DNA of 27,260 nucleotides from a virus (lineage: Duplodnaviria; Heunggongvirae; Uroviricota; Caudoviricetes), in the IMG/VR virus record IMGVR_UViG_2541047905_000014; one strand, given 5' to 3'. This document shows positions 4,541-18,725 of the stretch, one piece after another. Each line of letters starts with the position of its first letter. The stretch's first letter is position 1. The translations under genes were made by a program, and so were the position numbers. The notes beneath the pieces are model-generated. The model was not told the origin of the DNA. It did not search any database and saw only the letters and a list, made by a program, of their open reading frames with translations.

Positions 4541-4598
4541 AAAAAGGGCGGCAGAGCAGTCACGGAGTAAAACTGATACCGCCAAATGTCACCAGAAA
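4541..4598 (-). ncRNA. dicF: DicF small RNA (antisense regulator of ftsZ and other targets)
   Basis: Minus-strand sequence TTTCTGGTGACATTTGGCGGTATCAGTTTTACTCCGTGACTGCTCTGCCGCCCTTTTT matches remembered DicF with one substitution, including the GGCGG...CCGCC terminator stem and U-tail. It lies about 180 nt upstream of dicB, as in Qin. Confidence 0.8.
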
Positions 4599-13139: not shown

Positions 13140-13655
13140 ATGAGCGAGATTAATTATCAGGAAGGGCATGAAACGGCAGGGCAGGCAAAACCAGTTGCAT
13201 GGCGATATCGCTACGTGAAAAAAGACGTTACAGACTTTCAGGGGAAGCCGTGGGCTGGTGACTGGAAATATGTACCGACAAAAGAGGATTGTAACGACAG
13301 GCCGAACTATGAAATTCAGGCCTTATTCATCGGCCCGCCAGTCCCGGTGACATCAGAAGGACTGGTTAAAGCCGTGCGCTTTTATGAACAGGTAAAGCGT
13401 GAGAATCCGCCAGTCGAAACAGGAGCATGGAAGGATGCTGTTGACTGGGTGCTCAGAGAGGCCTGCTGCGCTGCCATTCTGGGTAAAGCCGACAATCCAC
13501 CAGCATCCGGCAATCAGGTTAGCGAATTAACAATGTGGGTTAAACGACTGGTCAGTCAACTGAAAAAAGCTCAGCCGGACTGCAAATTACCGGAGAAGGC
13601 GATAGATTACCTGAAACGAAATGGACTGATAAGCGTGGAGGATGTTTTACGATGA
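13140..13655 (+). CDS. Hypothetical phage protein (171 aa)
   Basis: ATG coupled to the stop of the IS5-disrupted gene. No recognised motif. Confidence 0.65.
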   Translation: MSEINYQEGHETAGQAKPVAWRYRYVKKDVTDFQGKPWAGDWKYVPTKEDCNDRPNYEIQALFIGPPVPVTSEGLVKAVRFYEQVKRENPPVETGAWKDAVDWVLREACCAAILGKADNPPASGNQVSELTMWVKRLVSQLKKAQPDCKLPEKAIDYLKRNGLISVEDVLR

Positions 13656-13775
13656 ATATTTAGACTAAAGAGTTTGTAACGCTATGTAAGTGATTTTTTC
13701 TGGTTTAGATATTTATATGTCCGGCCAAATTGAGGTGTGTTTAAATGTTATTGCACATTGATTGTAGGGGGAATA

Positions 13776-13955
13776 ATGAAAAACGCATTGCAGTTTTTGT
13801 TTGTTGCGTTCTGGTTGTTCGCATCATGTATGCCCATCATCTTCACAGCAAGGTATATGGAAAAAATTGATGTTTTGATATTAATGTTTGGACATATAAA
13901 TGCCCTTTTTTTAGGGGTGTTCATGGCGGTCATGTGCATTGAATACTGGCGGTAA
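13776..13955 (+). CDS. Small two-helix hydrophobic membrane protein (59 aa) in an AT-rich island
   Basis: GGGGGA RBS 5 nt before the internal ATG at 13776. Two hydrophobic helices (ALQFLFVAFWLFASCMPIIF and VLILMFGHINALFLGVFMAVMCI). Local sequence is AT-rich. Confidence 0.4.
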   Translation: MKNALQFLFVAFWLFASCMPIIFTARYMEKIDVLILMFGHINALFLGVFMAVMCIEYWR

Positions 13956-14157
13956 ATACAGCGAACGCCATTGGTTTAGTTGGATATTTACTGTGCCGGA
14001 CAAAAACGGTTTGCGGGGAAATCTTAGTTAAGTAGAATAACTGCGGGTGCTTGAGGCTATCTGTCTCAGGCATGAACACCAAAAGGCAGATAGAGAAAAG
14101 CCCCAGTTAACATTACGCGTCCTGCAAGACGCTTAACATTAATCTGAGGCCATATCT

Positions 14158-14217
14158 ATGCGACACATAGAGATTAGCCTCTTACGGACCGAAAGGTCAA
14201 GGAGAAGCAGGCTATGA
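14158..14217 (+). CDS. mok-like leader ORF, translationally coupled to hok
   Basis: 19-codon ORF whose TGA overlaps the hok ATG (ATGA), as expected for mok/hok coupling. Too short to confirm by sequence alone. Confidence 0.35.
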   Translation: MRHIEISLLRTERSRRSRL

Positions 14218-14369
14218 AGCAGCAAAAGGCGATGTTAATCGCCCTGATCGTCATCTGTTTAACCGTCATAGTGACGGCACTGGTAACGAGGAAAGACCTC
14301 TGCGAGGTACGAATCCGAACCGGCCAGACGGAGGTCGCTGTCTTCACAGCTTACGAACCTGAGGAGTAA
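14214..14369 (+). CDS. hokD: Hok/Gef family type I toxin (HokD/RelF-like)
   Basis: Hand-translated 51 aa: MKQQKAMLIALIVICLTVIVTALVTRKDLCEVRIRTGQTEVAVFTAYEPEE, matching remembered HokD/RelF. GGAG RBS. mRNA 5'/3' complementarity is present: CTGCGGGTGCTTGAG at 14041-14055 versus CTCAACGCACCCGCA at about 14420-14435 (ucb/fbi-like). Confidence 0.9.
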   Translation: MKQQKAMLIALIVICLTVIVTALVTRKDLCEVRIRTGQTEVAVFTAYEPEE

Positions 14370-14437
14370 GAGACCCGGCGAGGGAGAAATCCCTCGCCAC
14401 CTCTGATGTGGCAGGCATTCTCAACGCACCCGCACTT

Positions 14438-14469
14438 AACCCGCTTCGGCGGGTTTTTGTTTTTATTTT
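14438..14469 (+). terminator. Intrinsic terminator at the 3' end of the hok mRNA
   Basis: AACCCGC-TTCG-GCGGGTT followed by TTTTGTTTTTATTTT. Confidence 0.7.
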
Positions 14470-14585
14470 CAACGCATTTGAAGTTCTGGACGGTGCCGGA
14501 ATAGAATCAAAAATACTTAAGTAGCGCGCAGGGATAAGAGGGATGGTCCCTTAAAGGGGAGAGCTAATTATCCGGAAGGATTCTG

Positions 14586-14837
14586 ATGATGAACATCGAA
14601 GAACTGCGTAAAATTTTTTGTGAAGATGGCCTCTATGCTGTGTGCGTTGAAAATGGAAATATTGTTAGTCATTACCGCATTGTGTGTTTGCAAAAAAATG
14701 GGGCTGCGTTAATTAATTTTGTGGATGCCCGAGTGACGGACGGATTTATCTTGCGCGACGGTGAGTTTGTCACTTCATTACAGGTATTGAAAGAGATCGG
14801 AATAAAAGCTGGCTTTTCTGCTTTTTCAGAAGAATAA
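14586..14837 (+). CDS. rem: Rem-like small protein (83 aa)
   Basis: 83-aa ORF directly downstream of hok, between hok and the DUF968 gene, as for rem in Qin (rem is 83 aa from memory). GGAAGGA RBS. Confidence 0.55.
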   Translation: MMNIEELRKIFCEDGLYAVCVENGNIVSHYRIVCLQKNGAALINFVDARVTDGFILRDGEFVTSLQVLKEIGIKAGFSAFSEE

Positions 14838-17578: not shown

Positions 17579-17654
17579 GGCCCTTTAGCTCAGTGGTGAG
17601 AGCGAGCGACTCATAATCGCCAGGTCGCTGGTTCAAATCCAGCAAGGGCCACCA
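17579..17654 (+). tRNA. ileZ: tRNA with CAU anticodon, ileX/ileZ-like (tRNA-Ile2, lysidine-modified) rather than tRNA-Met
   Basis: Cloverleaf: acceptor GGCCCTT/AAGGGCC, anticodon loop CTCATAA, T-loop GGTTCAAATCC, encoded CCA. Close to E. coli ileX by memory. Confidence 0.85.
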
Positions 17655-17754: not shown

Positions 17755-17828
17755 GCGTTGTTAGCTCAGCCGGACAGAGCAATTGCCTTCTAAGCAATCG
17801 GTCACTGGTTCGAATCCAGTACAGCGCG
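17755..17828 (+). tRNA. argN: tRNA-Arg (UCU anticodon)
   Basis: Acceptor GCGTTGT/ACAGCGC, anticodon stem ATTGC/GCAAT with loop CTTCTAA (anticodon TCT), T-loop GGTTCGAATCC. Confidence 0.85.
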
Positions 17829-18295: not shown

Positions 18296-18688
18296 ATACA
18301 TATCTGGATTATCACTTGTTACGGTAAAAAGTGATTGCTTACTGTTTTTGTGAGTGGCATTGCAGCAGCCGGATAATGTCAGTGCTGGCTGACGGTGTGC
18401 TGGTGGCGGGTGTGGTGGTTGTTGCTTTCCCGTTGCTGAAAAAGAAAACGCCAGACTGTTAGCCGGGTATCAGTTAGCGGGAGAAATTTTTAAATACTTC
18501 ACAATTCAGGCGGTTGACTGTTGTCTGGTTTGCGGGGAGTTTGTTAAAAGAAACTGGCATGGTGAATCCCCCTGTGCGGAGGGGCAATCAGCGAGTAGGT
18601 ATATGGGATAATCGCGGATTCAGGTGCTGGTACTGAATTCACCGGGAGGCACCCGGCACCATGCAATGGCACATAGCGCCACTCTCCA

Positions 18689-18725
18689 GCCCCTCTCCGG
18701 AGGGGCTGTTTATATTGATTTTGTC
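18689..18725 (+). terminator. Intrinsic terminator closing a roughly 400-bp ORF-free, GC-richer segment
   Basis: GCCCCTC-TCCG-GAGGGGC followed by TGTTTATATTGATTTTGTC. Confidence 0.5.

Follow-up and report, generated by a model that had tools for sequence, protein, structure and literature searches.

A very probably intact hok/mok/sok module, the full-length form of hokD, in a lambdoid prophage sequence

Positions 14010..14465 of the window (the whole 27,260-nt stretch of viral DNA that was analyzed) very probably constitute an intact type I toxin-antitoxin module (hok/mok/sok) that belongs to the hokD/hokW lineage and occupies the early-right (nin-like) part of a lambdoid Escherichia coli prophage, with rem, rusA, and the Q antiterminator gene downstream of it. 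This locus is the full-length form of hokD, which E. coli K-12 keeps as a stump only. The module is already known and is ordinary: its lineage is annotated in phage 933W and was characterized experimentally in phage Sp5 in 2021. An earlier reading made from the DNA letters alone (the sequence-only reading) had proposed that hok/sok-style control is retained here. That proposal is upheld by a match of the leader to Rfam family RF01794 and by a fold-back stem conserved with compensatory substitutions in 39 loci, and the data support the presence of all the sequence elements for hok/sok-style post-transcriptional control.

Results

The 51-aa ORF that the sequence-only reading had assigned to the Hok/Gef family was recognized as such by Pfam HOK_GEF (PF01848), with a match over the full profile (positions 1-42) at E=1.2e-23 and 82.9 bits (cut-off 22), and by the PHROG profile "MokW-like host killing" (2.8e-33). 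Hok toxicity and its neutralization by Sok have been demonstrated for the homolog hokW-sokW (PMC8621323). The hok Shine-Dalgarno (SD) sequence is part of a CAAGGAG motif conserved in nearly all homologs, and the TTACGAA sequence around the Tyr47 codon is invariant in 39 homologs. TadA A-to-I editing resulting in a Tyr-to-Cys change has been reported for hokC, hokD, and hokE, at a level of 6% for hokD in K-12 (PMC12214031). The positions of all elements discussed below are collected in Table 1.

Table 1. Observed and predicted elements of the hok/mok/sok locus in the window
Element	Position	Strand	Sequence, pairing, or basis
Putative hok promoter	14010..14038	+	-35 TTTGCG 14010..14015 (3/6, weak); 17-nt spacer; -10 TAGAAT 14033..14038
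Predicted full-length hok mRNA, about 417 nt	14045..14461	+	Both ends predicted, from the RF01794 start, the terminator, and the fold
tac (translational activator element)	14045..14056	+	GGGUGCUUGAGG; pairs with fbi in full-length mRNA, with ucb in processed mRNA
Inner stem-loop of the 5' tac-stem domain	14057..14093	+	10 bp, 14057..14066 with 14084..14093
ucb (anti-SD)	14098..14104	+	AAGCCCC; pairs with mok SD (closed) or tac (open); invariant in 39 homologs
Sok-target hairpin	14105..14145	+	Complement is the Sok terminator hairpin
mok SD	14146..14149	+	GAGG; invariant in 39/39 homologs
mok-like leader ORF, 19 codons	14158..14217	+	MRHIEISLLRTERSRRSRL; TGA 14215..14217 overlaps hok ATG as ATGA
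Predicted Sok antisense RNA, 69 nt	14164..14096	-	Mapped from sokW of AF125520
Predicted Sok promoter	14200..14171	-	-35 TTGACC (14200..14195); 18-nt spacer; -10 TAATCT (14176..14171); start G opposite 14164
dcb (downstream complementary box)	14177..14181	+	GCCUC; pairs with mok SD GAGGC in open form; 100% of cells paired
hok SD	14199..14204	+	AAGGAG
hok toxin CDS	14214..14369	+	51 aa, MKQQKAMLIALIVICLTVIVTALVTRKDLCEVRIRTGQTEVAVFTAYEPEE; nucleotide sequence identical to K-12 hokD (relF)
UACG at Tyr47, candidate TadA A-to-I editing site (Tyr to Cys)	14352..14355	+	Matches reported hok sites
9-bp GAAA-loop hairpin directly after hok stop codon	14377..14398	+	From the fold
fbi (fold-back inhibitory element)	14419..14431	+	UCUCAACGCACCC; C14425 bulged
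Intrinsic terminator	14438..14465	+	7-bp stem, UUCG loop (stem-loop 14438..14455), T run

Copies of the 511-nt region that are 100% identical occur in many complete E. coli genomes, and copies with at least 80% coverage were found in 3,824 of 5,426 E. coli genomes, at up to 9 places per genome. RefSeq labels the hok CDS as hokD and annotates only this CDS under the 511-nt copies. In strains 55989 and LC-1302-2020 the locus lies within a lambdoid prophage, flanked by early genes on one side and by rem, DUF968, rusA, and the Q antiterminator gene on the other, and hok is oriented in the same direction as the flanking early genes and rem-rusA-Q. Elsewhere in the window, the Rfam scan matched DicF (4546..4597, minus strand), STnc100 (18528..18717, plus strand), and two tRNAs (17579..17651 and 17755..17828, both plus strand), which lie downstream of the Q antiterminator gene and are annotated as Ile and Arg in a matching genome; the DicF, tRNA, and STnc100 matches fit a Qin-like or lambdoid prophage. 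Sequences of the hokD type with 96-100% amino-acid identity were also seen on tiny contigs labeled Acinetobacter idrijaensis and Xanthomonas pisi (L017, 275 bp, and L022, 431 bp), and an "Actinobacillus phage" record (H28) carries a locus 94.6% identical at the DNA level. These matches probably represent E. coli contamination or mislabeling and not true hosts.

The AT-rich island with a small membrane protein that had been noted upstream of hok is present, with a GC content of 0.345 across 13600..13900 and a 59-aa hydrophobic ORF (13776..13955) lying in this patch of 34.5% GC, just before the hok promoter. The ORF gave no family match in the Pfam or PHROGs searches and was treated as unrelated to the locus. 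In strain 55989, IS1 is inserted into it (L001 13151..13848).

A search of the whole window with Rfam, one of the checks suggested by the sequence-only reading, placed RF01794 at 14045..14216 on the plus strand with 106.7 bits (gathering score 59), covering model positions 1-157 of 157. Control searches gave 113.5 bits for the phage 933W locus and 111.1 bits for the Rac locus, and no RF01794 match in the K-12 Qin region. Although RF01794 is named "sok antitoxin," it in fact models the hok mRNA leader strand from the 5' end to the hok AUG; therefore, the match identifies the leader and not the Sok RNA itself. The predicted transcript (14045..14461) folds with -167.7 kcal/mol (z = -7.2). In the 39-sequence alignment described below, 92% of cells in the inner stem of the tac-stem domain are paired, and 3 pairs have changed on both sides. 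The hairpin that directly follows the hok stop codon is conserved (majority fraction 0.91) and likely protects the 3' end of the processed mRNA, by analogy with R1 (PMC9841398). Further downstream is an intrinsic terminator, as had been read from the sequence.

The start of the hok mRNA at about G14045 is supported by a -10-like hexamer whose distance to the tac GGG downstream of it is exactly 6 nt in 39 of 39 homologs. In a consensus promoter scan the hok promoter fell below threshold and was not called (-35 only 3/6), nor was any minus-strand promoter called at the locus. Missed promoters were not taken as absence, because the hok -35 and the Sok -10 are below the thresholds yet positionally conserved. 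The sole site called by the scan was TTGAAG-18-TAGAAT at 14478..14507 on the plus strand, between the hok terminator and rem (14586..14837), and it is possibly the rem promoter.

The fixed position of the hexamer also bears on whether hok is mainly a passenger of the prophage early-right operon, like relF of relBEF in K-12, with leader elements that are irrelevant. Co-orientation of hok with the flanking early genes and rem-rusA-Q would be in keeping with such a role, as would the reported co-transcription of K-12 hokD with relBE (PMC3598666). However, the 6-nt spacing between hexamer and tac is kept in all 39 homologs across unrelated contexts, the locus has its own terminator, and tac works only at a 5' end, with the complementarity stopping at 14045 in distant homologs. 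We consider it very unlikely that hok is simply carried along by the operon.

Conservation of the pairings was assessed in homologous loci. A scan of one genome per species yielded 53 hok loci, of which 38 had both the leader and the 3' UTR; these 38 and the window formed an alignment (A2) of 39 sequences, with members from Escherichia, Kluyvera, Pseudocitrobacter, Citrobacter, Photorhabdus, Pantoea, Erwinia, and Kalamiella. L005, L006, L015, L027, L043, L045, and L047 were left out of A2 at this selection step as leaderless or disrupted loci with one partner element missing, so the figures below describe loci that possess both partners. For the closed form (tac/fbi plus ucb/mok-SD), 88.8% of cells were paired, compared with 33-53% when the partners were slid against each other; for the open form (tac/ucb, inner stem, and mok-SD/dcb), the corresponding values were 96.3% and 38-57%. 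The ucb/SD helix showed compensatory changes at 4 pairs in the 39 loci. Since most pairs of both forms are invariant and clear covariations are few, conservation carries more of the support than covariation does. The pattern agrees with what has long been published for the hok family.

The minimum-free-energy fold of the transcript contains the tac/fbi stem, which is 12 nt long and includes the C14425 bulge and a G14056-U14419 wobble. The sequence-only reading had described a 15-nt complementarity between the two ends of the mRNA (14041..14055 with about 14420..14435). This complementarity is real over 12 nt (14045..14056 with 14419..14431) but not over the further 3 nt: 14042..14044 with 14432..14434 were rejected as part of an RNA stem, being upstream of the likely start at G14045 and conserved only in the closest relatives. 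The name that had been given to the pairing, ucb/fbi, also needs correction, as the 5'-3' stem is tac/fbi and ucb is the anti-SD element that masks the mok SD. The tac/fbi stem is an experimentally established stem of the hok family, in which ucb sequesters the mok SD in the closed form (PMC9841398).

The stem is short, with one bulge and one wobble pair, and might on that account be regarded as a chance inverted repeat with no role. When 12-mer/68-mer pairs with the same spacing were taken from the window, however, only 12 of 17,912 attained its duplex energy of -19.2 kcal/mol, as did 9 of 6,527 pairs in a GC-matched background; the stem is thus stronger than 99.9% of background pairs. Per-sequence duplex folding gave tac/fbi energies of -16.7 to -25.0 kcal/mol, with 10-12 bp, in every one of the 39 aligned sequences. 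At tac position 4 the pairing is U:A in 25 loci, C:G in 11, and U:G in 2, with a mismatch in 1, and positions 11 and 12 have also changed on both sides of the stem. Lack of conservation of the fold-back in homologous loci had been named beforehand as part of what would overturn the reading; the fold-back was kept in 39 of 39, with compensatory changes, and together with the established status of tac/fbi in the family this refutes a chance origin, to which we give virtually no credence. Cells scored as "not paired" in the second half of tac/fbi in the pair count were dismissed as a register artefact, as E. coli-type loci have a 1-nt bulge that Photorhabdus-type loci lack.

The mok-like ORF of 19 codons, ending in a stop that overlaps the hok ATG, was correctly recognized by the sequence-only reading. 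A start codon is found 6-10 nt downstream of the mok SD in 38 of the 39 loci (8 nt in the window). Compared with the closest full-length loci, the window has a 2-nt deletion just after the mok ATG, by which its mok is frameshifted, and among the A2 homologs (L004-L054) the mok frame takes all three values relative to hok. In the first class, which comprises the window, L014, L016, and L050-52, mok has 19 codons and ends at ATGA; in the second, to which most loci belong, it has 68-70 codons and is in frame with hok (a Mok-Hok fusion), as in mokW and mokC; and in the third, as in R1, its 55-69 codons overlap hok in another frame. The 19-codon form turns up repeatedly in distant lineages (Escherichia ruysiae, E. 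whittamii, Erwinia, and Kalamiella). The window allele is a common variant, since 1,549 E. coli records match it with at least 99% identity over the surrounding 101 nt. Conservation of the mok SD and start alongside a variable frame suggests that the act of translating mok matters and not the Mok peptide. We assume that coupling of mok and hok translation is kept through the AUGA overlap despite the 2-nt deletion.

The GenBank record of 933W (AF125520) annotates mokW, hokW, and a 71-nt sokW antisense RNA. Mapping of sokW onto the window predicts a Sok RNA that agrees with the minus-strand RNA that the sequence-only reading had expected at about 14100..14170. The predicted RNA would consist of a 5' tail of about 13 nt, a long hairpin, and UUUU (-29.3 kcal/mol, z = -5.0), and the mok SD and start codon lie within the region to which it is complementary. 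In Sp5, sokW is a 71-nt antitoxin RNA that is transcribed from its own promoter and lost after mitomycin C treatment in a RecA-dependent manner (PMC8621323). Promoter prediction, which had also been suggested as a check, did not help here: the simple scan called no minus-strand site (-10 3/6), so the case for the Sok promoter is built on homology, conservation, and the sokW experiments and not on the consensus. Its layout, CTCCTTG[A]CC ... GTAAGAGGC-TAAYCT, recurs in homologs. The Sok RNA of the window itself is predicted from homology.

The segment complementary to the Sok 5' tail and start site (14151..14172, A2 columns 142-167) is the most variable part of the leader, with a majority fraction of 0.63-0.66 versus 0.89-1.00 for the flanking SD, ucb, and dcb. 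This segment could set Sok specificity among the several copies present in a genome.

Discussion

A model of the locus is proposed, in which we infer the order of events from R1 and hokW. The weak promoter would start a hok mRNA of roughly 417 nt at about G14045. In the full-length RNA, the 5' tac would pair with the 3' fbi and ucb would mask the mok SD, such that neither ribosomes nor Sok could engage. Slow 3' trimming would then take away fbi and the terminator until it reached the hairpin at 14377..14398, after which tac would pair with ucb and the mok SD with dcb, exposing the Sok target and allowing mok translation. Ribosomes on the 19-codon mok would stop at the UGA overlapping the hok AUG, and hok translation would thus be coupled to that of mok. 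As long as the short-lived 69-nt Sok is supplied, it would pair across the mok SD and start codon, blocking translation and leading to cleavage of the duplex. Once the supply ends, for example upon prophage loss or induction, Hok would enter the inner membrane and kill or lyse the cell. The locus could serve in prophage retention, could assist lysis on induction as for hokW, or could do nothing at all.

An intact sequence is no guarantee of activity, because chromosomal hokA, hokB, and hokC have been reported to be unable to mediate post-segregational killing, and they also failed in rifampicin activation (bioRxiv 10.1101/2025.08.07.668861). The module might accordingly look intact and yet be a physiologically silent relic, its elements kept by recent common descent and prophage hitch-hiking, that neither kills nor stabilizes. 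The description of K-12 hok loci as inactivated (PMC12214031), hok and Sok promoters that both fall below the consensus threshold, and a mok shortened by a 2-nt deletion are all compatible with such decay. Nevertheless, every regulatory element is intact and covaries across genera, and hokW-sokW, at 90.7% identity, is functional (PMC8621323). Furthermore, the short-mok allele is present at 99% identity or more in 1,549 records, and distant lineages (L014, L016, and L050-52) have the 19-codon ATGA arrangement as well. We regard a silent relic as unlikely and favor an intact module.

It is conceivable, though in our judgment speculative and on balance improbable, that this intact module has been rewired for prophage biology and not for post-segregational killing. 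If so, induction would be followed by N-antiterminated transcription running on from the early operon into the opposing Sok promoter; this collision would deplete Sok and time Hok-assisted lysis, and such depletion would explain the RecA-dependent loss of sokW in Sp5. The drift of mok among three frames would then show that only the act of translating mok matters, and the hypervariable complement of the Sok tail would keep up to nine copies per genome from cross-talking.

The locus adds little new biology and opens no new question. The "hokD" that RefSeq annotates alone in thousands of E. coli genomes is mostly part of a complete hok/mok/sok unit, of which the Sok RNA and the mok ORF go unannotated, and the relBEF arrangement of K-12 is the derived, leaderless state. 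These results should be useful for annotation as well as for work on prophage-borne type I toxin-antitoxin systems, including lysis timing, prophage retention, and cross-talk among multiple copies.

Comparison with known systems

The locus shares with hok/mok/sok (parB) of plasmid R1 the tac/fbi, ucb/mok-SD, and mok-SD/dcb pairings, a GAGG mok SD that lies about 100 nt from the mRNA 5' end, an antisense Sok (predicted in the window) that overlaps the start of mok, and a hairpin on the 3' side. However, R1 Hok and the HokW lineage have only about 44% identity, mok and hok of R1 overlap in different frames, and R1 is a plasmid system with a role in post-segregational killing, whereas the window locus resides on a prophage. 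hokC/mokC/sokC (gef) has a homologous leader that aligns throughout (L018-L021), with the same tac and fbi; its Hok is 80-82% identical to that of the window, its Sok-target hairpin is about 18-20 nt shorter, and its mokC encodes 69 aa in frame with hokC in a core-chromosome context.

hokD (relF) of K-12 Qin matches the window exactly over a stretch that begins about 15 nt before the hok ATG and takes in the CDS; it is near-identical thereafter, through fbi and the terminator into rem, and it lies in a similar prophage neighborhood (dicB/dicF ... hokD-rem-Q). The homology breaks about 15 nt upstream of the hok ATG, in accordance with the sequence-only reading, which had found no relBE upstream in the window, unlike in K-12. 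In Qin, relE abuts the hok SD, and because of this junction with relBE the promoter, tac, ucb, mok, and Sok are missing, with fbi retained as an orphan. Such a loss of the leader is in line with a published account in which the hok loci of K-12, hokB excepted, were inactivated by insertion elements or by rearrangements that removed canonical components (PMC12214031). Downstream of the CDS, the window differs from K-12 (L002) by 3 substitutions (14381, 14419, and 14476), one of which replaces a G-U pair of the 3' hairpin by A-U and another the basal tac/fbi G-C pair by G-U. Other E. coli also have the relE-abutting, leaderless hok junction, as does a Kluyvera sp. with a Hok of only 70% identity (L006, L027, and L043), so that the relBE-hok fusion is not a peculiarity of K-12.

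hokW/mokW/sokW of the Stx2 phages 933W and Sp5 (AF125520; Takada et al. 2021, PMC8621323) has 90.7% identity to the window locus over 440 nt and shares with it the 51-aa toxin family, the RF01794 leader, the tac/fbi sequences, the Sok hairpin (predicted in the window), and carriage on a lambdoid prophage. The two differ in mok, which has 70 codons in frame with hokW in 933W; in the Sok 5' tail (GUCGCAUAGAUAUGG versus GUUCAGCAUGGAUUGAG) and the Sok -35 and spacer (TTGACC/18 in the window versus TTGCCT/17 in 933W); and in the toxin C-terminus (VDYESEK in HokW versus TAYEPEE in the window). They also differ in their place in the phage genome, the window locus lying near rem and Q and hokW of 933W near the right end.
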